The position numbers and the translations under genes are program-made. From contig NC_045696.1 of the NCBI RefSeq assembly GCF_009834535.1, positions 50,160,001-50,224,000 on the forward strand: a stretch of 64,000 nucleotides of DNA, read 5' to 3'. Source of the DNA: Camelus ferus. Lineage: Eukaryota. The notes beneath the pieces were generated by a model. That model did not search any database. It saw nothing but the letters and a program-made list of their open reading frames with translations, and was not told the DNA's origin. Shown one piece after another: positions 2,801 to 61,845 of this stretch. Each line of letters starts with the position of its first letter. Position 1 is the first letter of the stretch.

Positions 2801-4225
2801 AGTGCAACCATCACCACTATCTAGTTTTGAAATATTTTCATCACCTCAAAAGGAAACTCCATGCTCATTAATCTCCCCCCATTTTACCTTTCTCTCAGCC
2901 CCTGGCAACCATTAATCACTTTCTGTCTCTGTGGTGTTTCTCTTCTGGGTATTTCTGTATAAACAGAATCACACAATATGTGATCTTCTGTGTCCAGCTT
3001 CTTTTGCCTAGTATAGTGTTTTTGAAGTTCATCTATGTTGTATCCTGTACCAGTACTTCATTCTTTTTTATGGGTGAATAATATTGCACTGTATGGATGT
3101 ACCACATTTCCTTTATTTATCAGTTAATAGGCATTTGGGTTGTTTCCACTTTAAGGCTGTTGTGAACAGTGTTTCTGTAAACATTTGTGTACAGGTTTTT
3201 GTGTGGATATATATTTTCATTTCACTTGGGTATTTTCCTAGCAATGGAATTACTGGGGCCTGTGGCAGTAATTCCTTAACCTTTTGAAGACCTGCCAGAC
3301 TGTTTTCCAAAGCATCTGCATCATTTTGCATTCCCATCAGCAATATATAAGGATTTCAATTGTCCATATTCTTGCCAATACCTATCATCTTCCATTAAAA
3401 AGGAAATTCTAGTTTCCCTAGTGGGTGAAGTTGTACTTCATTGTAGCTTAATTTGCATTCCCTTAATAACTAATTATGTTTTTAACATTTTTTCCTGTGT
3501 TTATTAACCATTTATATACATATTTTTGAAGAAATGTCTATTTAACTCCTTTGCACATTTTTAATTGGGTTCTTGTCTGTTTTTGAGCTGCAAGAATTCT
3601 TCATATATTTTGGGTACTAGTCCCTTACCAGATAAATGATTTACAAATATTTTTCACATTCTGGGAGCTGTCTCTTCACTCTCTTGATAGTGTCCTTTAA
3701 AGCACAAACGTTCTTAATTTTCATGAAGTACAATTCACCTATTTATTCTTTTGTTGCTTGTGCTTTTGATATTGTACCAAAAAACTACTGACAAATCCAA
3801 GATCATGAAGATTTACTACTATGTTTTCTTCTAAGGAAACATACTATAATAGTTTAATATAAACATAGATGTTATTGTTTTAGTTTTTATATTTAGATAT
3901 CTGATCTTTTTAAAATTATTTTGTGTATCATGCATGAGGGAGAGTTCCAAATTTATCCTTTGCATGTGGATATCTAATTGTCCCAGCACAATTTACTGAA
4001 GAAAGTATACTTTTCCCTTTGAATGGTCTTGACACTCTTGTTAAAAATCAATTGACCAAAGATGTATGGATTTATTCTGGACTCTGTTTTTTTCCACTGA
4101 TGTATATAACTATTCTTACACCAGTACCACACTGTTTTAATAACTATAGTTTTGTAGTGAGCTTTGAAATAGAGAAACATGAGTCCTCCAACTCTGTTTC
4201 TTTTTCAAGACTTTTTTGTCTATTG
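2801..4225 (-). mobile_element. Older LINE-1 fragment (L1MB-like), antisense
   Basis: Minus-strand ORF fragments (YKTIVIKTVWYWCKN...INPYIFGQLIFNK; PVIPLLGKYP...LFTTALKWKQPKC) are L1 ORF2 C-terminal motifs. Confidence 0.85.
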
Positions 4226-4258: not shown

Positions 4259-4300
4259 CACACACACACACACACACACATATGTGTGCATACACACATA
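4259..4300. repeat. (CA)n microsatellite with degenerate CA/TG tail
   Basis: cacacacacacacacacacacatatgtgtgcatacacacata, about 150 nt into BTLA intron 2. Confidence 0.85.
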
Positions 4301-4448: not shown

Positions 4449-4771
4449 TTGTCACATTAATGGTAACTGAGTGGCTTTCAATGAATCCAGACAAAGAGTT
4501 CACTGAACGGCGGTATGACCCATTTTCACTAGCAAGCACCTGATTAAAATGCAAAATAAAAATAGAAATATTCTTCCTTTCTTCTCAACCCATGTATCCC
4601 TGAAGTCTGTCCCCAAGATGTAAACAGCTGTTTCCTTCGAGCTTGCACCAGGCCCCAGCAAGTCTGTTAGCACAGTATTTCACAGGCATTCCAGTTCAAA
4701 TGGATCCCCTGCTGACACAGCACATACAGAATATCTCTTAATGTAAAGTCGTATGTCACATGACTCTTCCC
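4449..4771 (-). pseudogene. BTLA: BTLA exon 2 (Ig domain), disrupted by a frameshift, a nonsense codon and a lost Cys
   Basis: Acceptor ttttgtttttatctctcag|GG and donor ACA A|gtgagt are intact. Reads EESCDIRLYIKRYSVCAVSAGDPFELEC-[1 nt missing]-VKYCANRLAGAWCKLEGNSCLHLGDRLQGYMG*EERKNISIFILHFNQVLASENGSYRRSVNSLSGFIESHSVTINVT, recognisably the BTLA Ig domain. Length is 323 nt, not a multiple of 3 for a phase 1-1 exon. Confidence 0.9.
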
Positions 4772-19649: not shown

Positions 19650-19737
19650 CACTGATATTCCAAATGCCTAGATGTAGGATTAGAAAGAGGACCCAAGACA
19701 ACTTCCCAATACCAAGCATGGCAAGCGATGACTTCAT
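19650..19737 (-). CDS. BTLA: BTLA exon 1 (coding part): signal peptide, intact
   Basis: Reverse strand reads ATG AAG TCA TCG CTT GCC ATG CTT GGT ATT GGG AAG TTG TCT TGG GTC CTC TTT CTA ATC CTA CAT CTA GGC ATT TGG AAT ATC AGT G|gtaagg = MKSSLAMLGIGKLSWVLFLILHLGIWNIS(G). This is colinear with the human BTLA N-terminus as recalled (MKTLPAMLGTGKLFWVFFLIPYLDIWNIHG). 88 nt, phase-1 GTAAG donor, downstream of ATG3 on the same strand as in human. Confidence 0.93.
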
Positions 19738-24495: not shown

Positions 24496-26177
24496 TTAAT
24501 TTGACATAGTTATGACAGTGTTGAATATACAACTTTTTATTTTGCTTTCCTGTGCCCCTTGTTCAATGGGTAATATCCTTCATAGGGAGAATTCTGTAGA
24601 TGGTGGGAAGGCATGAAAGCTAGCTTAGTAGAAATCGCAGTATTAAATTAGTCAATTTGGGAGAAACTGTGATGATTAGCCAAGTCAACGGGGAAAATAG
24701 TGAAAAAAAACAGGCAAACAGGCAGAAACATGGAAAATTCACATTCTTTTAACTATAGAAGTGAAAGTGGCTAAGCGCACAGTGGGAATCGGACCCGTAA
24801 AATCAAAGGCTGTTTCAGAGCTGAACTGCACAGCTCCACCTACATCTGTCTTCCCAGTAGCATTCTCTCCTTATTTACATGACTTCACGAGAAGAAGATG
24901 TAAATGAGTAAATAGTAATTCAAAGCAAAACAAGCTTTATCTTGGAGTAAGGTCAAACAAAGAATTTGGGAGGAGTTTATCCCGAAATGAAATATGTATT
25001 TGCTTACCCATCCAGCAGCTTCCTGGAGGCCCATCAGTGCCAGTCATTTCAGTTGCTCAAAAATAAAGGGATCCCAGAATGAGAGGTCCCAAGGATGGTC
25101 CCAGGAGGCCAGGGAAGCAGGGACAATTCGAGGGCTCAGCACAGCAACTAGTCACCATTCACCAACCAGTTCAGACGTACAGCATTTCATATTTCAACAT
25201 CCAGTAGGGCCAGGCCAATGGTAACTAACTGAAGTTTGGTCGTTTTAATCCTTTTAATACTGATTGGAGTCAGTGTTAATAAATTCAAATAACTACATAT
25301 CTAAGTCTTCCCACATAATGGTTTGAAAAGAAACTCAGAAACACCAGATCTGTGGGAGGCATTTTCTTCTGACCTTTGAGCAAGGTTTTGGCTGCAGCTC
25401 AGCAGCCTTGTGGGATTGCTCTCTCTGCCCTCCCTTATCATCAGCACTTCTCCAAGTGATTTAGGAAAAACTACTCTCCAGTGGCATATATTTAAATAGC
25501 TGAATAATGTTCCATCTTATAGGACTATTTATTTAGCCCTTTCCCTACAATAGGGTATTTAGGTTTTTCCAACTTTTCACATAAAAATAAACATTTTTGC
25601 TCTGCTGCATTTTGGATGATCTCCCACAAGTGAAATTATTGGGATGAGTATGTGAACATTTTTAGCCTTCCTGATACTTAGGTCTACATAACTTCCAAGA
25701 ACCACCAACGTACATTTCTAGTGCCAAGTTATGAGAGCATCCAGATTTGGTTTAACTGCATCTTTACCATTAGTAATATCTTGTTATGATCATGAAAATT
25801 TTAAAAGTAAAACTTTCCACTTATTTTGGATTTTTATGTTTAATGAGGATGAACAAATTTGGGGGTGTTTTATAATTTGTGAATTGCTGTTCTTGAGTAA
25901 TTAACTGTTGATCAAGATATTGGAGTCAGTGGTTTTCTTAATATTTTAAAATTTTATCGTGCATATATTGAATATATTAAACTCTCGTCACCTTGCCTGT
26001 TATATTTTCAGCAAATAGTTTTTGCCTTTTAACATTTGAATAGTAGTTTTTGATTTATAGAAGTTGCTTTTTAAAAAGGCAACTGTATCTAACAGTAACC
26101 ATATCTAACCATTTATGTTGCTTTTAAATTAGAAAAAAGCTTTCCTGGGTGACCTCTAATCAAGATGTCTAGATGAG

Positions 26178-28910: not shown

Positions 28911-29058
28911 CTTTTCTTTTTTTATCTTTTTTTGTGTGGGGGGGTGTAATTAGGTTTATTGATTGATTGATTGATTTTTAACAGAGGTACTGGGGATGGA
29001 ACCCAGCATCTCCTACATGCTAGGCACATCCTCTACCACTGAGCTATACCCTCCCCCC
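28911..29058 (-). mobile_element. tRNA-derived SINE, camelid vic-1-like
   Basis: Minus strand ggggggagggtatagctcagtggtagaggatgtgcctagcatgtaggagatgctgggttccatccccagtacctct... (A/B box-like head) with an A-rich tail. TSD taattctt at 28903-28910 and 29059-29066. Confidence 0.85.
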
Positions 29059-38470: not shown

Positions 38471-40573
38471 TACTGTCGGAGAATAGGTTCTTGCCTCACA
38501 CAGAAAAGAATTCAAGAGCAAGACATAGTAAAGTGAAAGCAAGTTTATTTAGAAAGATACACACTCCATAGACAGAGTCCAGTCTGTCTCACTCAGAAGG
38601 GAAAACAGCCTAGGAGATGCACGTTGGATAGCAGAATGCAGGCCATCCCAGAAAGGTGAGAGGGAGACCGAGACGTGTCGGGTATTTAATTTAAAGTAAA
38701 GGCACTGCTACAAAAACAGACATATGGACCAATGGAACAGAATAGAGAGCCCAGAATTTAAATGAACCCACAAACTTTTGGTCAAATAATCTTCGACAAA
38801 GGAGGCAAGAATATACAATGGACTAAAGACAGTCTCTTCAGCAAATGGTGTTGGGAAAACTGGACAGCAGCATGTAAATCAATGAAGCTAGAACACTCCC
38901 TTATACCATATACAAAAATAAACTCAAAATTGATCAAAGACTTCAACATAAGGCAAGATACAATAAACCTCCTAGAAGAAAACATAGGCAAAACATTATC
39001 TAATATACATCTCAAAAATGTTCTCCTAGGGCAGTCTACTCAAGCAATAGAAATAAAAGCAAGAATAAACAAATGGGACCTACTTAAACTTACAAGCTTT
39101 TGCACAGCAAAGGAAACCATAAGCAAAACAAAACGACAACCTACAGAATGGGAGAAAATTTTTGTAAAAGATGAAACTGACAAATGCTCTCCAGAGTATA
39201 CAAGCAGCTCATACGACTTAATAAGAAAGAAACAAACCACTCAATCCAAAAATGGGCAGAAGACCTAAACAAGCAATTTTCCAAGGAAGAAATACAAATG
39301 ATCAATAGGCACATGAAAAAATGCTCAGTATCACTAATTATTAGAGAAATGCAAATCAAAACTACAATGAGGTATCACCTCACACCAGCCAGAATGGCCA
39401 TCATTCAAAAGTCCACAAATGACAAATGCTGGAGAGGCTGTGGAGAAAAGGGAACCCTCCAACACTGCTGGTGGGAATGCAGTTTGGTGCAGCCACTATG
39501 GAAAACAGTATGGAGAATCCTCAAAAGACTAGGAATAGACTTACCGTATGACCCAGGAATCCCGCTCCTGGGCATATATCCAGAAGGAGCCCTACTTCAA
39601 AAAGACAACCTGCACCCCAATGTTCATACCAGCACTATTTACAGTAGCCAAGACATGGAAACAACCTAAATGTCCATCAACAGATGACTAGATAAAGAAG
39701 ATGTGGTATATTTACACAATGGAATACTATTCAGCCATAAAAATGACAACATAATGCCATTTGCAGCAACATGGATGTCTCTGGAGAGTGTCATTCTAAG
39801 TGAAGTAAGCCAGAAAGAGAAAGAAAAATACCATATGAGATCACTCATATGTGAAATCTAAAAAAAAAAAAAAAAAAAAGAACATAAATATAAAACAGAA
39901 ACAGACTCATAGACATAGAATACAAACTTGTGGTTACCAGTAGGGAGGGGGGTAGGAAGGGAGGACAGACTGGGAATTCGAAATTTGTAGATACTGACAG
40001 GCATATGTAGAATAGATAAACTAAGATTATACTGTATAGCACAGGGAAATATATACAAGATCTTGTGGTAGCTCACAGTGAAAAATAATGTGACAATGAA
40101 TACATGTATGTTCATGTATAACTGAAAAATTGTGCTCTACACTGGAAATTGACACAACATTATTAACTGACTATAACTCAATAAAACAACAACAATAACA
40201 ACAAAAGTAAAGGTAGATACACCCTCCACAGACAAAGTGCAGTCCTTCTCAGAAGGCAAGAAAGCAAGACCATGAGGTGAGGAGTTAGTTTTTATGGGCT
40301 CAGTAATTTCATATGCTAATGAGTAGGAGGATTATTCCAACTACTTTGGGGAAGGGGCAGGGATTTCCAGGAATCAGCACACCCCTGACCACTTTTTGAC
40401 CTTTTATGGTCAGCCTAGGAACTGTCATGACACCTATGGGTGTGCCACAAGGCTCAAGGTCTACTGGAAGTCTGATCTTCCACCATCTTGGTTCTAACCA
40501 GTTTGTGTTGTATCCTCAATTGCTGTGTGATTCCTTCAAATGCTTATGCCCTGCCCCCTTTCCTCTTATCTCA
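38471..40573 (-). mobile_element. ERV LTR split in two (38471-38702 and 40204-40573) by an L1 insertion
   Basis: LTR-like text on both sides of the L1 (agaaaagaattcaagagcaagacatag...agcaagtttattt; ccactttttgaccttttatggtcagcct). Candidate 4-bp TSD AGCC at 38467-38470 and 40574-40577. Confidence 0.6.
38703..40203 (+). mobile_element. Young camelid-type LINE-1, 5'-truncated (ORF2 C-terminus, 3' UTR and tail)
   Basis: ORFs 38762-39268 and 39184-39669 are L1 ORF2p C-terminal sequence ([49 protein letters not shown]). 10-bp TSD aaagtaaagg at 38693-38702 and 40204-40213. Confidence 0.95.
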
Positions 40574-42369: not shown

Positions 42370-45300
42370 GGTAATGTCAGTAAAATGGTAGACTAGGAGG
42401 ATCCAATGCTTGTCCCCCAAACAAAAAACAAAGAATAAACAACTACATACTGATGGAAACAGCTCTGGGAGAACTCCAGTGTACCCTAAAGTCACTGCAG
42501 AAATCCCGAGGAGTACAAAAACCAAAGGTGGTGCATAGAAAGGTATAGAAAGCATACATATGTCATCTCGTCCCCCAGTCTGGCACAGCTTATGGCCACG
42601 AGGGATAAATGTGATTGCCTCCTACGAGGAAAAAAGAGAACCAAAGGATCTCAGCAGCCTTCATCAGTGCTGAGGGCACCATGGCTTTTGCCACCAAGAA
42701 CCCCTACAGTCTACACTTATGCTGAAACCAGCCGACAGAATTGCCCGGAGTCACCACTGCTGTCTCCTACCCCCTGCTAGGCTCAGAGCAGCAGCTGCAT
42801 CCTCACACCAAGGGCCAGAGCTGCCTCTGTGCAATGCTGCTCCCTCTCCAGAGCAGAGCCACCTGTGTACACTGCTGGATCCCCAGCCCCCAGTTCCAGA
42901 GTTGACAGCCCTCTCCCACAACCACGTACACACCCTGGGCCCTGTCTCTGTAACTGCCCCACATGAGCCTGCGCCTTAGACTTCTGCTGCACCACTGCTG
43001 CAGCAAGTGCACATCCACTCTGGACCCACACCAAGAGGTAGCCTCTTAGCTGTGACTTGCTCAAATGAAATGAAAACATGGTAAACAGCAACATAAACAT
43101 TTATGTGAAAGCATAAGTATCACAGATAAAGACACATATACAGACACATGCAGATTAACACAGTAAAGGTGATGTGTAAGTTATTTTTAATCCTGATATA
43201 AAATTTAATAGATATAAATTTGTTCATGGCTACACAATATAAAAGAACATCAACTGTCTACAAGAACATGAAGTGTTGAGATGGGAACAATAAAAGGACA
43301 GTATTTTGTACAAAACTGAAATTGTGTTATCAATTTAAAATAGAAGGTTTTAATTACAAGATATTTTGTGCAAGCCTCAAGCTAACCAACAAAAAAACTT
43401 ATAACAGATACACAAAAGATGAAGTAGAAAAAAACAAACAAAATCACTATAAAAAATCATGAGATGAGAAAGGAAGAGAGCAAGAGAGGAAGGAAGGGAC
43501 AAAACAAGTGAAAAACAGAAAACATTTAGCAAAATGTCAATGTTAAGTCATCATTTATCAATAATTTAACTTAAAATATTTAAAGTCACCAATAAAAAGG
43601 CACAAAGTGGCCACATGTAAACCAAGATCCATCAACATACTGTCTACAAGAGACTTGCTTTTGAATTAAAGATAAACATAGACTGAAAGTGAAGCAAGAG
43701 AAAAAGATATTTCACACAAATCATAACTTAAAAGAGCACAGGGATAGCTATACTCATATCAGATAAAATATACTTTAAGTCTAAAACTGTCTCTAGAGAC
43801 ATTATATAATAATAAAAGGATAAATTCAACTGGAAGATATAACAATTATATACATAACACAACTCAACATCAGAGCATCTCAAGATATAAAGCAAATACT
43901 GACAGACCTGAAAGGCAGAAAGTGACAGCAGTAAAATAATAGTGGGGAACTTCAATACCCTGCTTACAATAATGGACAGAACATCCACCCAGAAAATCAA
44001 TCAAGAAACAATTGACTTGAACACTATAGATCAAATGAAAGTTCATTTACATAACTTTCCACATATCAGCAGAAGAATACACATCCTTCTCAAGTGCACA
44101 TGGAACACATTCCCCAGGAGAGGTCACGTTAGGTCACAAGACAAGTCAACAAATTTAAGAAGACTTCAACTACTCCAAGTATCTTTTATAACCACATGGA
44201 ATGAAACTAGATCAATAACAGCAAGAAAACTGGAAAATTCACAAATACATGGAAATTAAACAACACGCTCTACTGGGTCAAAGAGAAAATCAGAAGAAAA
44301 AATTTTAAATACCTCCAGACGATCAACATGCCCCAAACTATGGGATACAGGAAAAGCAGTAATAAGAAGGAATTTCATAGTGATAAATAGCTACAGTAAA
44401 AAGAAGAAAGAGCCCAAACAAAGAATCTAACTTTATATCTCAAGGAACTAGAAAAAAGAAGAACTAAGCCCAAATTTAGCAAAAGGAAGGAAATAACAAA
44501 GATGAGAACAGGAAAAAAAAAAACGATATAGAGACTATAAAGACAATAGCAAAGATCAAAGACACTTTAGCTAGACTAAGACTAAAAGAGAGAAAACATA
44601 AAATCAGAAATAAAAGAGACACTACAACTGATAATAAAGGAATGCTAAGGATCACAAGAAACTACTATGAATGATTATGTGCCAACAAATTAGACAAACT
44701 AGAAGAAATGAATGAATTACTAGAAATACACAACCTACCAAGATTGAACCAAAAAGAAACAGAAAATCTGAACAGATCAATAATGAAAAAAGAGACTAAA
44801 TCAATAGTCAAAATTTCCCAACAAAGAAAAATCCAGGACTGTCTGGCTTCACTAGTTAATTTCACCAGACATTTAAAGAATTAATATCAATCCTTCTCAA
44901 AGTCTTCCAAAAATTGAAGAGGAAGGAATGCTTCTCAACTCAACAATATCCTAGTATCAAAACTGATGAACACAGATGCAAAAATCCTCAACAAAGTATT
45001 AGCAAACCAGTTTCAACAATACATTAAAAGGATCATATACCATGATCAAGTGGGATTTATCTTTGGGATGCAAAGATGGTTCAACATACGCAAATCAATA
45101 AATATGTTAACAAAATGAAGGATAAAAAATCATGATCATCCTAATATATGCCTCATCCCAATATATTTCATCAAAGCATTTGGTGAAATTCAACATCCTT
45201 TCATGATAAAAACTCTCAACAAATTAGGTACAGATGGAACATAGTAAAGGCCATATATTATAAGCACACAGCTAAGATCATACTCAATGGCAAAAAGGCT

Positions 45301-46362
45301 GAAAGTTTTTCCTCTAAGATCAGGAAAAAGAAAGGATACTCATTCTCATCACTCAAACAATTCAACAGCAAACACCAAAACCAAAAACATAACCCAATTA
45401 AACAATAGGCAAAGACTCAAATGGACATTTTTCCAAAGACATCCAAATGGCTAACAGGTACATGAATAGATGGTCAACATTACTAATAATCAAGGAAATG
45501 CAAATCAGAGCCACAATGAGATATTACCTCACCTGCAGGATGGCTGTTATCAAAAAGACCAGAGATAGCAATTGATGGTGAGGATATGGAGAAAAGGAAA
45601 CCCTTGTACACTGTTAGGGTATGTAAACTGGTACAGCCACTACAGAAAATGGTATGGAGGTTCCTCAAGAAATTAAATAGAACTACCGTAAGATTCAAAA
45701 ATCCCATTTTTGGGTATGTATTCAAAGGAAATAAAATCATTCTCTCAAGGAGATATCTGTACTCCCATGTTTGCTGCAGCATTACTCACAATAGCCAAGA
45801 TTTTGAAACAACCTAAGTGTACTCTGCAGGATGAATGAGTAAAGGAAATGTGGTGTATATTATATAGTAGAATATTATTCAGCCTTTTTTAAAAAAAGAA
45901 ATGCTCTCATTTTTGACAACATGGATTAATCAGGAGGGCATTTCACCAAGCAAAATAAGCCAGATAGATAGAACAAATACCTCATTAGCATTTACATGTG
46001 GAATCTTAAAAAGAAGTCAAACTCATAGAAATAAAAAGTAGCATGGTGGTTGCCATGGGCTGGGAGAAAGGGGAGAGGCTGTTGAAAGGGCATATAAACT
46101 TTCAGTTATAAAATGAGTAGGGTATGAGGACCTAAGTATAGCATGGTGACTATAGTTGATCACAGTGTATTGTACATTTGAAATTTAGGTAAGAAAATAA
46201 ATCTTAAGCATTCTTATCAAAAAAAAATGTAAATATGTGATGTGATGAATGTTATTTCAATCGTGAGAATTCTTTACAAATTATTCATGTATCAAATAAT
46301 CACACTGTATACTTTAAATACATTATAATTTGATCAGTTATACCTCAATAAAACAAAAAATT
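42370..46362 (+). mobile_element. LINE-1 (L1MA-like) with 5' UTR-like GC-rich part, decayed ORF2 with internal deletions, and 3' UTR
   Basis: Endonuclease remnant (GNFNTLLTIMDRTSTQKINQET), RT-region text (catgatcaagtgggatttat...gatgcaaagatggttcaacatacgcaaatcaataaat), and a 3' end with tatacctcaataaaac. Confidence 0.85.
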
Positions 46363-50199: not shown

Positions 50200-52187
50200 A
50201 CCCTAGAAAAAACAGTCCTATATATAATACAGAAATTGAATCTATTTAAAACTTTCCCCAAAACCTCAAGGCCCAGATAGTGTCACTGGCAAATTCTAAT
50301 TCTACATAATATTGTCAAGAAAACATAAGAGAAGCAAACACATCCCAACTCATACTGAGGCTATCACTATTGTAAAATCAAAATCAGACAAAGACAACAG
50401 AAGAAAATCACTGCCAATATTCCTCATAGACACAGATATAAAACTCATCAATAAAATTTTAGCAAAGCGATTCTAGCAATACATGAAAATAATATGTGTC
50501 TCACCTGTGGAATGCAAGGCTGTCTCAATAACCAATGTAATTCATATTAACAGAATTTTTAAAAACCATGATTGTTTAAACAGATATAACAAATTTGACA
50601 AAATCCAACATTTATGATAGACTCTTAGCAAACTAGGAATATAACGGAGCTTTCTCGACCTGATAAAGAACATGTACAAAAAGCTACAGCTAACAGCCTA
50701 CTTAATGGTGAGAAACTGATCCAAAGATCAGGAACAGGCAAGGAGGTCCGCTCTCATCACTCCTACTCAACACTGTACTTGAAGTCCTATCCAGTTTAAT
50801 GATACAAGAAAACTGTAAGACACATAGATTGGAAAGAAAGAAAAATTGTCTATATTTGCAGATGATATGATTATCTATAGAGAAAATCTAAAAGGATCTA
50901 CAATAAACTACCAGATTAAAAATGAATTTAGCAACATTGTGGAATCATAAGATCAGTATATGAAGACCTAAATATAAGACCAGAAACCAGAAACCATAAC
51001 TCCTAGAAAAAAAAAAAAATAGGCAGAACACTCTTTGATATAAATTGTAGTAATATTTTTTGGATCTGTCTCCTCAAGTAAAGGAAACAAAAAGAAACAA
51101 ACGGAACCTAATTAAACTTGAAAGCTTTTGCACAGCAAAGGAAACTATCTACAAAGTGAAAAAAAAAAAAAAACTACTGAATAGGAGAAAATATTCACAA
51201 ATGATAAGACCAATAAGGGGTTAATATCCAAAATATATTAACAGCTCATATAACTCAATACCAAAAAACAGACCTGATTAAAAAATGGGCATAAGACCTG
51301 CATAGACACATTTACAGACATACAGATGGCCAACAGGCACATGAAAAGATGCTCAACATTGCTAGTCATCAGAGAAATGCAAATCAAATGCACAATGAAT
51401 ATCAACCCACACCTCTCCGAACGACCTTCATCAAAAAGAACACAAATAACAAATGTTAGCAAGGATGTGGAGAAAAGGGAACCCTTGTACACTGTTGGTG
51501 AGAATGTACATTGGTGCAGCCACTGTGGAAAACAGTATAGAGGTTCCTCAAAAAACATAAAAACAGAACTACCATATGATCAAGGAATTCCACTCCTGGG
51601 TATATATCTGAAGAAAATAAAAACACTAATTCAAAAAGACACACACACCTCAATGTTCACAGCAGCATTATTTACAATAGCCAAGATATGGAAGCAACCC
51701 AAGTGTCCATCAACAGATGAATGGATAAAGAAGATGTAGTATATGTGTACAATGGAATAATACTCAGCCATTAAAAAGAATGTAATTTTGCCATAGATGG
51801 ACCTGAAGGATATTATGCTTAGTGAAGTAAGTCAGATAGAGAAAGACAAATACTCTATGTTATCACTTACACATGGAATCTAAAAAATAAAACAATATAA
51901 CAAAATAGAAACAGATTCAGAGATACAGAAAATAATCTGTGGTTACCAGTGAGGTGAGAGAAGTGGGGAGGGACAAGACAGAGGTATAGGATTAAGAGGT
52001 ACAAACTACTATATGCAAAATAAATAAGCTACAAGGTATATTGTACAGCACAGAGAATATAGACTATATTTTAAATAACTATAAATGGAATATAATCTTT
52101 AGAAACTGTGATTCACTATGCTAAACACCTGAAACTAATACAATATCGTAAATCAACTATATTTCAATTTTTAAAAAAGAGGCAAGA
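50200..52187 (+). mobile_element. LINE-1 fragments: old ORF2 piece (to about 50960) followed by a younger ORF2 3' end and 3' UTR
   Basis: ORF 51326-51739 ([20 protein letters not shown]...[28 protein letters not shown]) is the L1 ORF2p C-terminus. The 3' UTR resembles that at 2530-2800. Confidence 0.88.
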
Positions 52188-52899
52188 TTGTGGAAAACAG
52201 TATGGAGATTCCTCAAAATACTAAAAACAGACTTACCGTATGACCCAGCAATCCCACTCCTGGGCATAATATCCAGAAGGATATATTGAAAAAACACCAG
52301 CACCCGAATGATCATAGCAGCACTATTTACAATAGCCAAGACATGGAAACAACCTAAATGTCCATCAACAGGTGACTGGATAAAGAAGTTGTAGTATATT
52401 AATACAATGGAATACTATTCAGCCACAAAAATAACAACATAATGCCATTTGCAGCAACATGGCTATCCCTGGAGAAAGTCATTCTAAGTGAAGTAAGCCT
52501 GAAAGAAAAGAAAAATACCATATAAGATCACTCATATGTGGAATCTCAAAAAATAAAAAAGACAAATGAACTTAAATATAAAACAGAAAAAGATTCATAG
52601 ACATAGAACACAAGCTTGTGGTTGCTGGGGGGTGGAGAGGGGTGGGAAGGGACAGACTGGGAGTTCGAGATTTGTAGTTACTGACAGGTATATATATAAT
52701 AGATAAACAAGATTATACTGTATAGCACAGGGAAATATATACAAGATCTTGTAGCTCATGGTGAAGAAGAGTATGAAAATGAATATATGTATATTCATGT
52801 ATGACTGAAAAATCATGCTATACACCAGAAATTGACACATTGTAAACTGACTATAACTCAATAAAGACAAATAAATAAAAAATAATAAAAATAAAAAAT
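52188..52899 (+). mobile_element. Young camelid-type L1 3' fragment inserted at the tail of the preceding L1
   Basis: Highly similar to 39500-40190. 12-bp TSD aaagaggcaaga at 52176-52187 and 52900-52911. Confidence 0.9.
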
Positions 52900-53238
52900 A
52901 AAGAGGCAAGAAAAAAATAAAATGCACAAACAGCAAAAAAAAAAAAAAAAACTATAGTTAATGGTATTTTATCAATGTTAATTGTTTCTTCGTTTTGATA
53001 AATGTATCATGTTTACATAGGATATTAACATTAGAGGAAGCCAAGTGAAAGATGTACAGTACTTAACAATTCTTCTGTATATCTAAAGTTATTTCAAAAT
53101 AAAAAGTTAGAAAAAAATGTATTATCACTTTCTACTACTTACGCAAATAAGACATTTAAAAATGCCATGAAATAAATATAAAAATAAACTGGATACAAGG
53201 CTTTTAAAATTGTCATCTATAATCTGAATTCCAATTCT

Positions 53239-53665
53239 TTCTTTTTTTAATTGAAATATAGTCAGTTTACAATGTTGTGTCAATTTTGGTGTACAGCATA
53301 ATGCTTTAGTTATACATGAGCATACATGTATTCATTTTCATATGCTTCTTCATTATAGTTTACAGCAAGGTATTGAATAGTTCCCAGTGCTACACAGTAG
53401 GAGCTTGTTGTTTACCTATTTTATATATAGTTAGTATCTGCAAATCTCAAACTCCCAATTTATCCTTTTCCACCCCCTTTCTTCCAGTAACGATAAGTTT
53501 ATTTTATATATCTGAGTTTATTTCCATTTTGTAAATAAGTTCACTTGTGTTTTTTTTTTCCTTAGATTCCATATATGAGTGATACCATATAGCATTTTTC
53601 TTTCTCTTTCTGGCTTACTTCACCTAGAATGACAATCTCCAGGTCCATCGACGTTGCTGCAAATG
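53239..53665 (-). mobile_element. Camelid-type L1 3' fragment, antisense
   Basis: T-rich tail followed by the reverse complement of an L1 3' UTR. 13-bp TSD gaattccaattct at 53226-53238 and 53666-53678. Confidence 0.88.
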
Positions 53666-54920
53666 GAATTCCAATTCTAAGCTCATCAAAACTTCACTGT
53701 TCACCAAACCAGTCCAATTTTCTCAGTGAGTGCTAGAAATGTAAACTCATAAAAACATATTTATACCATTAATATATCCACATTTGTTTTAGGTGTTGGT
53801 GATCCATATAAAATTTTCAATTGGAAAAGATCTGAGAATAAAAACGTTTGACCAACAAAATCATTTATGCCACCTAGTGGTGACTGAGATAAATATGACT
53901 GCTGATTTAAGAAGCTTAACTGGGAGGAAAATGTTGACGATGTGATAATATCTAGTATTAGTATCATTTAAACAAAATGTATTCAGAAGTAGGATATTTC
54001 AGTAAAATCAGTTTGGAAGATTAAATTTAGAAAGGAGAGTAGCTTCCTGGCTACAAGACAAGCAGGAAATCTGAAGTATATGAGAAGATGACACCCCTGT
54101 TTATAATTCCACATTATACCATATCAAACACCACACCACTGTACCAACCTGTTATTTTCATTACAGAGATTTTCTTAAAACACAAAAATTGGGCTACAAA
54201 TGGAAAGAGAGGAAATAAAGAGGCACTAGAAGTAAGGAGAATATTGAATGATGAAGAATAAACAAACAAAGGTTCCTCACAGGTAGGGTTAGCCACTCCC
54301 GTTATACGCAGAATGGAAAGAACAGGGACAAGGGCACTGTGGAGGCACAAAGAAAATGTAAAAGAAGTCATCAGAGGGCCTGAGCTCTACCCCTTCGCTC
54401 TCAGTGCATGTCCCTAAGAACACACACAACCGTTCTGAACTCCCAGACCCAGATCTGTAAAGTGATGTGACACAACAAAGGGACACCTTCAAATTCTAAT
54501 ATTCTACCAGGCAATCACCACAGGAGATATATTCCTGAATCCTTAATTAAAAATAACTTCGATGGTATCAACCTAACAAAACAATCCAGAAACAAAATAA
54601 GTAACAGCACTTTACAGATCTCCTGGCACACAGTAAGCACTTCATCAGTATTAATGATTAGCAGATAGGAGACTTAGAGAGACAGAGACGGGGAAAAAAA
54701 AGGAACAGAGAAAGAGAAAGACGGGAAGGTGAGTCTAGCATGCAGTATTCCTAGTCCCAGTTCTCACACTATCACACATTTAAATACCTAAAAGTGAACC
54801 AAAAATACTCTTATCATCATTCTGTATGAGATACTTCTGTACGTAAAGAATTATTATTTAAGGAAAATACTAACATCACCTTTTGATAAAAAGCAAAAAA
54901 ATGGTCTCTTTACACTCATT

Positions 54921-55090: not shown

Positions 55091-55172
55091 TTACATTGTG
55101 AAGTGTCTTGTGTAGTCATATTCTATTGTTGGAATGACAGCTTGTACAAATTTCAAGAAAATTAGAAGATAC
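55091..55172 (-). CDS. ATG3: ATG3 last coding exon with stop codon (approx. exon 12)
   Basis: atttag|G TAT CTT CTA...ACA ATG TAA; 82 nt; [26 protein letters not shown]. Confidence 0.97.
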
Positions 55173-59693: not shown

Positions 59694-59849
59694 CTCATCA
59701 TAGCCGAACAACCATAGTCGTGGCGTCTGGTAATATTTATCGTAAGTGATGTAAAGGTCATAAGTTCTGGTTTGCAAAATAGCATCTTCACCTCCAGCAT
59801 CAGTTTTAGCTTTACAAGCTTCTACTATTTTCCTTGTATCCAGGGTAGC
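59694..59849 (-). CDS. ATG3: ATG3 coding exon (approx. exon 9)
   Basis: ccag|GCT...GAG|gtaaac; 156 nt; [52 protein letters not shown], hallmark ATG3 sequence. Confidence 0.97.
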
Positions 59850-60078
59850 CTGGCAATCGTGGTAAAAAATTTACAATCATTAAAATCACTATGAGTGTGA
59901 TATTTTAGAAAATCTGTTTTCCCACTCTATATATTTTTTTAAAAGCAGATATAACAAAACTCAAAGTTAAAATGTTATATGCTATAAATGATGTACATAT
60001 ATAAAGACTTGTTTGATATATTAAGAACACCAATCCTCAAGTTTATTCATTAAAAATTAAAGAAAGCAATTTACAGAC

Positions 60079-60429: not shown

Positions 60430-61845
60430 GTGCTTGTTAAAGTCATCAGTGATTTCCACTTTGCTGAATCCAGCGGTAAATTCCCAGTTTTCATCTTAAT
60501 TGACTGCACAGGAACATCTAGTATGATTTATTCCCTCCTTGGAAGGTTTTTCTTTTCTCAGCCTTTAAGATACTACATTTTCCTGGCCTTCCTTCCACCT
60601 CATTAGCTTCTCCTTCACTATCTCTTAGACTGGTTCCTCTTTATCATCTCACCATCTCGACCCTTTTTTACCCCTAAACTCTGCAGTAACCAAGAGCTCA
60701 GTTTTTGGACCTTGTCTCTTCTCTATCTACACATACTCCCTTGATGATTTCACCTAGTCCCAATGGCTTTAAATGCTGATGACTCTCAAATGTATTCCCT
60801 GACTACAAATCCTGGATACTTGATTGTTTGCTCCAATGAATGACTAAAGGGCAGCAGAAATATCACATTAAAAACTGAGTTGCTGGGGTTGGGGATGTAA
60901 CTCAGTGGTAAAGTGGGTGCCTGGCGTGCACGTGGTCATGGGTTCAATCCCCAGTGCCTCTGTTAAGGGTGGGGAAAAACAAAAAACCTGAGCTCCTGAC
61001 TCCCCCTCCAGAGCTGTTCAGTCTAGATTTTCCCATTCTCAATTAATGACACTTTTCCAAAAGAAACTCAGGTCAAAAATCTTGACCTCTTGGTTTCTCT
61101 CATATCACATTCAATCCAGCAGCAAATCCTTTTGGGCCCTAGCCTCAAAGTATGTCCAGAATTTTGTGGTTTCTAATCAATTCCAATGTTACTACTCAAG
61201 CCCAAGCCACAGTCATCTCTTGTCTATATTATCAAAATAACCGCCTAACTGTCCCTATCTCTTCCCCCAACACTGAAGTCATAGAGATTCTGTTAAGATG
61301 TTAAATTCCACTTTAGTTGTTCTTCTGTTTAGAAAAGCCCTCTAAAGGCTTCTCATCTCACTTTGACTTAAAGCCAGGGCCCTACACCATCTGGTTCTCA
61401 AGTTACCTCTCTGACCCCATGTCTTATTACCGTCTCCTCACTCTTGTGGAGCCTCCTTGCAGTATTTTATACAAACCACACATACTCCCCCTTCAGGGCC
61501 TTTGCATGCTTCCTCAGACCTCCAAATAGCTTGTTCACTCACTTCCTGCCGGGCTTCACTCAAAGGCATATTCTCGATGAGGTTTTTCTTCACTACCGAT
61601 TTAAAAATTACAACACTCATCCTACCACAGGACTCCCTACCCACTCTGTCCTTTATTTTTCTCCCTAACACTTACAGCCATCTAAGACAGTACTATGTTT
61701 TGCTTATCTACTGTTCTGTTTGTGCCCCCTAAATCAAATGTTAGCTCCATGAGATCATGTCTACTGCATTATCTCCAGCACCAAAGCAGTATCTGATACA
61801 TATACACTGCATTGCCCAACGTATACTTGTGGAATAACGAATGAA
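60430..61845 (+). mobile_element. L2 LINE remnant in an ATG3 intron (interrupted by a SINE)
   Basis: Pyrimidine-rich L2 body (ttctctatctacacatactcccttg...tgctgatgactctcaaat...cttcagggcctttgca) ending ttgtggaataacgaatgaa. Confidence 0.75.
60885..60983 (+). mobile_element. vic-1-like tRNA-derived SINE
   Basis: ggggatgtaactcagtggtaaagtgggtgcctggcgtgcacgtggtcatgggttcaatccccagtgcctct plus an A-rich tail; imperfect TSD aaaactgagttgct / aaacctgagctcct. Confidence 0.8.

Follow-up and report, generated by a model that had tools for sequence, protein, structure and literature searches.

BTLA, a conserved receptor that inhibits T and B cells and serves as a drug target, is kept by nearly all other mammals. 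An earlier note on this DNA, made from the letters alone, had placed a nonsense codon in the ancestral reading frame of the camel exon encoding the Ig domain, behind a frameshift. The locus raises the question of whether camels still possess a working BTLA and, if they do not, how, when and in which lineages the gene was lost.

Results

The locus and its exons

The window, by which we mean the whole 64-kb stretch of DNA analyzed, contains one BTLA copy. ATG3 exons are located at about 59.8 and 55.1 kb, upstream of it and in the same orientation, and the CD200 side falls beyond the window (Table 1). Adjacency of Btla and Atg3 has been described in mouse, rat and human (bioRxiv 10.1101/2023.08.29.555319). 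The best protein matches of the Ig exon were all BTLA, and in a tree of exons 1 and 2 (25 rows) the window grouped with the seven other artiodactyl rows at 97% bootstrap and was sister to hippo, humpback whale and ruminants (97% and 85% bootstrap), which agrees with the species tree. Judged by sequence, tree and synteny, this locus is the camel orthologue of BTLA. It has the same exon layout, signal peptide and ATG3 adjacency as hippo (XP_057553914.1), ruminant and human BTLA. Unlike them, it has a frameshift, a nonsense codon and a lost core Cys, and its protein models are without ITIM or ITSM. Past the frameshift, the camel Ig exon shares 78–82% identity with hippo and ruminants, both of which have intact BTLA proteins, and it keeps five of the six Cys.

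Table 1. Coordinates of BTLA and ATG3 features in the window
Feature	Position	Strand	Evidence or remark
BTLA exon 2 (Ig domain), 323 nt, 1 nt short of the 324 implied by homologues	4449..4771	-	phase 1 to phase 1
CGT (Arg) at F-strand Cys site (human Cys115)	4507..4509	-	C in 121/122 rows, remaining row a gap
Glu where 119/122 rows have Asp	4525..4527	-	alignment
TGA replacing conserved Trp codon of BTLA IgV exon 2 (W92, hippo numbering)	4585..4587	-	alignment
Missense cluster at conserved sites 67, 69 and 70	4651..4662	-	P in 112, V in 107, T in 99 of 122 rows
First stop of spliced product, TGA, codon 60	4680..4682	-	59-aa peptide
1-bp loss in short C run just past Cys58 codon	4685..4686	-	homology shifts from frame -3 to frame -2
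BTLA exon 1 (signal peptide)	19650..19737	-	ATG, open frame and GT donor all intact
Upstream first exon (coding part) of Camelus RefSeq BTLA models	25008..25047	-	13/13 residues; GT donor at 25007
ATG3 last coding exon, syntenic neighbor	55091..55172	-	start approximate; located with short motifs
ATG3 internal coding exon	59694..59852	-	E 1.2e-17 to human ATG3

No intact camelid BTLA protein was found among nine hits, the best 120 of 147, and two further hits. Pfam scans of the long frames and of the ATG3 exons were without result, and a search of JGI metagenomes gave 169 pattern matches, none of them a relative. Two database entries, a BTLA protein labeled ATG3 (P0085, Crocuta) and a fused ATG3–BTLA model (P0142, Bos mutus), are annotation slips that follow from the two genes being neighbors.

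Elsewhere in the window, a short (CA)n microsatellite at 4259-4281, about 170 bp past the exon 2 donor, is usable as a linked marker. L1-like fragments with 65–88% mutual identity lie at about 840-2800, 3000-4200, 38700-40200, 45300-46000 and 50900-53700, the two nearest to exon 2 sitting just downstream of it in opposite orientations. The window has only two Rfam hits, both tRNA-like with A-rich tails (28982-29053(-) and 60891-60962(+)) and presumably resembling copies of the camelid tRNA-derived SINE.

Several lesions in the Ig exon

Exon 2 retains both splice sites (AG acceptor at 4773-4772, GT donor at 4448-4447), and the first stop of the spliced product, at 4682-4680(-), sits 231 nt ahead of that donor, a position predicted to trigger nonsense-mediated decay.

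The nonsense codon proposed in the earlier note is where it was said to be: plus-strand letters 4585-4587 are TCA, giving TGA on the minus strand (4587-4585(-)), and the ancestral frame reads as claimed. An 81-codon frame (4686-4444, with X at the stop) matched human BTLA (PDB 2AW2 and 6NYP) at E 2-4e-22. Its X fell on the Trp preceding KEEKNIS, the human residue that the note had named, and the same frame matched hippo, sheep and goat BTLA at 82%, again with Trp at the X position. Across homologues the column is W in 120 of 122 rows (isoforms counted). This TGA is the sole stop over 79 homologous codons and is one transition away from TGG, which bears out the further claim that the lesion is a substitution beyond the reach of homopolymer slippage.

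The same codon is nevertheless a passenger in the present reading frame rather than the operative stop, because the upstream 1-bp loss ends the spliced exon 1 and exon 2 product before the TGA is read. It would still block exon 2 were the 1-bp deletion a sequencing slip. Besides making the TGA, the G-to-A change gives rise to an AG at 4583-4585(-) that would splice in frame; its pyrimidine tract is poor (0.44), and its use would lose more than half of the Ig domain. We considered rescue of exon 2 by a cryptic acceptor and rejected it. Among 11 in-phase AG sites in 5000-4449, seven run into a stop and four stay open, giving at most 45 residues and all starting past the TGA, and none preserves the Ig domain.

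Human Cys58 and Cys115 form a buried disulfide (PMC5464627). In the alignment, the Arg at 4509-4507(-) occupies the position of human Cys115, so a Cys of the core disulfide is lost, a third lesion beyond the two of the note. A functional receptor would have an open frame through the Ig exon, three disulfides including Cys58–Cys115, and an in-frame cytoplasmic ITIM and ITSM, and would bind HVEM and recruit SHP-1/2. In the camel exon the frame is closed, and Arg stands at one of the Cys that these disulfides need. With a frameshift, a nonsense codon and a missing core Cys, no HVEM-binding domain would be possible. The note's further claim, that the TGA corroborates inactivation by the frameshift, also stands. 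The BTLA locus carries several lesions; the strongest corroboration appears to be a further frameshift beyond the window, read from the protein models described below.

The missense cluster in Table 1 may be one mutational event. At columns conserved in at least 95% of rows, the window has missense changes at 2 of 17, in addition to its two breaks, and one of 94 distinct homologue domains equals this on missense alone; with looser conservation cut-offs, 4 to 9 of the 94 depart as much as the window. The rows that stray most from the BTLA Ig consensus belong to four bats (P0115, P0074, P0045 and P0040; Pteronotus, Sturnira, Artibeus and Phyllostomus), with 8–9 changes at columns conserved in at least 85% of rows, a hint of fast BTLA evolution in that clade.

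Reads over the lesions

We consulted two Hi-C runs (X1 and X2) from one sample with the same species label, which may be the assembled animal; a difference is listed only if at least three reads show it away from read ends. Ten reads aligned, nine at 99% likeness or more and none below 95%, which is weak evidence against a second copy. X2 covered the stop (4578-4596) at depth 3 and X1 at depth 0; no alternative letter was listed there, and one of the three reads begins about 13 bases from the site. Over the deletion (4685-4686), depth was 1 and 2 reads. The reads thus agree with the assembly at the stop, are too thin for a genotype or for excluding heterozygosity, and carry no information on the deletion.

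What the Camelus BTLA models encode

The later BTLA exons fall beyond the window, and their state was read from protein models. A search of 50% representatives with hippo BTLA, which returned no intact Camelus protein either, recovered P0235, whose first 13 residues correspond exactly to 25047-25009(-), a match that upholds the assignment of this DNA to a camelid. The upstream first exon that they define (25008-25047(-)) lies 5.3 kb above the usual exon 1. The P0235 cluster has five members of 98–106 aa, all named BTLA, from two dromedary annotations (C. dromedarius) and the wild camel (C. ferus). A UniRef entry for Camelus lists additional accessions, and RefSeq keeps the locus as protein-coding. 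These models join the upstream exon straight to exon 3, omitting exons 1 and 2 and with them the signal peptide and the Ig domain. Several isoforms and the unusual exons suggest that the models rest on transcripts.

After the transmembrane segment, the models depart from BTLA sequence in a shifted tail found in both dromedary and wild camel. In all four homologues tested, residues 81-99 of the Camelus model can be matched to the cytoplasmic exon read in the +1 frame, each time at the same place, with 15/19 identities for rhino (0/200 shuffles as good) and 13/19 for hippo, sheep and cattle (0–1/200 shuffles as good). When the fit is extended over residues 81-106, the ruminant fits are weaker (13/200 shuffles), and a frame scan over stretches 65-73 and 69-80 gave no signal. 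The shift apparently begins three codons short of the transmembrane exon's end (0/3 in-frame identities, five homologues), and the T and E that follow it both fit the +1 frame in three of five homologues. We infer that the gene has a second frameshift where the transmembrane exon ends, one that would remove the ITIM/ITSM tail. In keeping with this, all five Camelus models lack a tail Tyr, an ITIM and an ITSM, and ITIM-like and ITSM-like motifs occur in 118 of 120 homologues. As read from the proteins, the in-frame cytoplasmic ITIM and ITSM of a functional receptor are missing.

Divergence and date

Overall divergence of the exon is not raised and gives no signal of long decay. At 0.15, the window's branch does not exceed those of its intact relatives (0.148–0.186), and its eight private residues equal the number in hippo. 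At the 35 slowest sites, the window differs from each of three outgroups at eight, compared with two to six for the seven other artiodactyl rows. Two rough clocks with assumed rates gave 16–26 million years, with 95% limits of 2–94, and P = 0.006–0.32 for a neutral period of 16.3 million years (the upper limit that PMC12127551 would set on a loss confined to Camelus), values that leave the order of the loss and the Old World/New World split undecided. Because the shifted tail is common to dromedary and wild camel, the loss of BTLA likely preceded the split between dromedary and two-humped camels.

Other lineages

Cetaceans are represented among the hits only by a humpback 'LOW QUALITY PROTEIN' (P0009, Megaptera novaeangliae; KAM9089915.1), which has gaps near codons 37-39 and 77-78 and no ITIM or ITSM, and which keeps the Trp. 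A whale-like ENA record (P0207) equals the humpback model over the in-frame stretch and changes frame at the same places. The residue that P0207 has at the Trp codon could not come from TGG, the one-step options being TAG or TCG. The two whale frame changes (P0207, P0009) may cancel in sum but scramble about 38 codons. Both whale and camel breaks disrupt the Ig exon. Because the former sit near codons 37-39 and 77-78 and the latter at codon 59, the whale breaks, as read from proteins, appear to be events separate from those of the camel.

For pig, the text of PMC12831279 (citing Dawson and Lunney 2018) names BTLA and CD160 among pseudogenes that NCBI annotates as low-quality proteins, and its supplement counts both as 1:1:1 proteins. 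We dropped the reading of pig BTLA as a pseudogene on the strength of that text, since the supplement lists a protein. There was no pig BTLA among the listed protein matches, and the pig cell is empty in the orthogroup row discussed below. In two afrotherian BTLA models (P0168, Elephantulus edwardii; P0170, Chrysochloris asiatica), the Ig domain is incomplete or absent, which may reflect further losses or gaps in old assemblies.

One orthogroup row in the supplement to a study of Old World camel gene losses we take to be BTLA, from mRNA-to-protein numbering offsets for cattle, dromedary and wild camel. As given there (PMC12127551), the row holds one model each for alpaca, Bactrian camel, dromedary, wild camel and cattle, and its human, mouse and pig cells are empty. 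No alpaca BTLA appeared among the listed protein matches, where an intact one should rank high. As none of the 320 collected database proteins contains X, the collection may omit corrected models, and the absence of an alpaca protein leans towards loss in alpaca without showing it. We consider it probable that BTLA is lost in New World camelids as well; that they carry the exact TGA is about an even bet. That BTLA is missing from the list of Old World camel inactivations might be taken to point to loss in alpaca; we rejected this argument, as the gene fails the entry rules of that screen. As described in PMC12127551, the screen demanded corrected models, an uncorrected alpaca model, and human and mouse orthologues, and it would skip BTLA because the human and mouse cells of its row are empty. 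The name BTLA is in none of the six supplementary files of PMC12127551.

Discussion

With at least two inactivating lesions at the ancestral locus, a frameshift and a nonsense codon both present in the DNA, BTLA is very likely a unitary pseudogene in Camelus. We propose that one lesion killed the gene and that the others, probably including the TGA at 4587-4585(-), would have piled up after selection was lifted. The BTLA locus would still be transcribed; transcripts bearing exon 2 would be cut short and degraded by nonsense-mediated decay, and those without it would yield a short membrane peptide with no signaling motif. Herpesviruses use the HVEM–BTLA axis, and one may guess at the cause of the loss in two ways: the plain guess is a relaxed need, with compensation by related receptors, and a bolder one, offered as conjecture, is escape from that viral use. 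BTLA signals inhibition through HVEM and SHP-1/2 (PMC3342378), and camels are accordingly predicted to do without HVEM–BTLA–SHP1/2 inhibition of T and B cells.

A gentler reading is that only exon 2 has decayed and that the gene survives as an Ig-less isoform, or as the 98–106-aa membrane remnant, in a ligand-independent or new role. Exon 2 is phase 1–1 and so can be skipped in frame, exon 1 is intact, and an Ig-less BTLA splice form is known in mouse and man, as described in PMC8438243, and is modeled at 195 aa in panda and sea lion (P0327, P0329). These forms omit exon 2 and join exon 3 in phase 1, as the camel models do. They keep the signal peptide and the signaling tail, however, whereas the camel models have neither. 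A working Ig-less isoform is thus unsupported, because all five Camelus members lose frame past the transmembrane segment and, with it, the Tyr-bearing ITIM/ITSM tail that such an isoform needs. The remnant frame is 97–100% alike over the Camelus models, which could be read as a sign of retained function, but near identity is expected when the Camelus species split only about 4–5 million years ago, and an ESM Atlas search with the remnant found no convincing family (best 0.80). We regard survival in this form as quite unlikely.

The locus could also be a dead duplicate, with an intact BTLA elsewhere in the camel genome. Its syntenic position beside ATG3, the single copy in the window, the mapping of the RefSeq gene named BTLA to this locus and the one model per camelid in the orthogroup row all argue otherwise, as does the lack of an intact Camelus protein among the matches listed and, weakly, the lack of reads below 95% likeness. 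There is very little to recommend a duplicate, and just as improbable is the idea that faulty assembly, or a rare broken haplotype of one animal, accounts for the lesions while camels at large are intact. The deletion does lie in a short homopolymer, the reads come from one sample at a depth of 3, and indel errors are described as common in some livestock assemblies (PMC12831279, about pig). Against this, the TGA and the Cys-to-Arg change are substitutions, no read difference is listed, and the models of the wild camel and of both dromedary annotations alike bypass exon 2 and have the shifted tail. Inactivation of the ancestral gene remains our preferred reading.

Loss of BTLA in camels is unreported in the literature that we searched, which included the supplements of PMC7498332, PMC5865188, PMC12127551, PMC6386725 and PMC6760925 and the main text of PMC12462620; TOGA tables, subscription papers, bioRxiv supplements, figure-only lists and file 13 of PMC12831279 may record it. 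Unitary gene loss itself is already known in Camelus. TAS2R16, CES3, CPA3, PLA2G2F, KRT24 and PGLYRP4, as given in PMC12127551, are Old World camel losses that are likewise unitary and combine nonsense and frameshift lesions in the same genus, and camel BTLA would add a new case. A lone stop codon is an ordinary pseudogene lesion. What is new here is the account of the Camelus models, with their upstream start, skipped exons 1 and 2, shifted tail and missing ITIM/ITSM. Annotation masks the loss, as remnants of 98–106 aa named 'BTLA' in RefSeq make the gene look present.

In mice, absence of BTLA leads to heightened T-cell proliferation, autoantibodies and a hepatitis-like disease (PMC3342378). 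Camelus, as a genus of healthy mammals without the receptor, would be a natural knockout, in which one could ask what compensates, such as CD160, PD-1 or changes in HVEM. The finding also bears on camel and alpaca immunology, including antibody production and marker panels. Its interest is moderate and would be greater if the loss were family-wide and convergent; there are signs of separate loss in whales and perhaps in pigs, and such convergence is easily testable. A broader scenario, which we hold to be possible but rather doubtful, has at least three independent BTLA losses within the even-toed ungulates, one each in camelids as a whole, in baleen whales or cetaceans generally, and in pigs, with hippos and ruminants keeping the gene and with independent hits to the same Trp codon in camels and one whale. 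If that were true, a checkpoint receptor would have proved repeatedly dispensable within one order, perhaps, as a conjecture, through herpesviruses using HVEM–BTLA, and camelids would be natural BTLA knockouts with an unusual B-cell biology.
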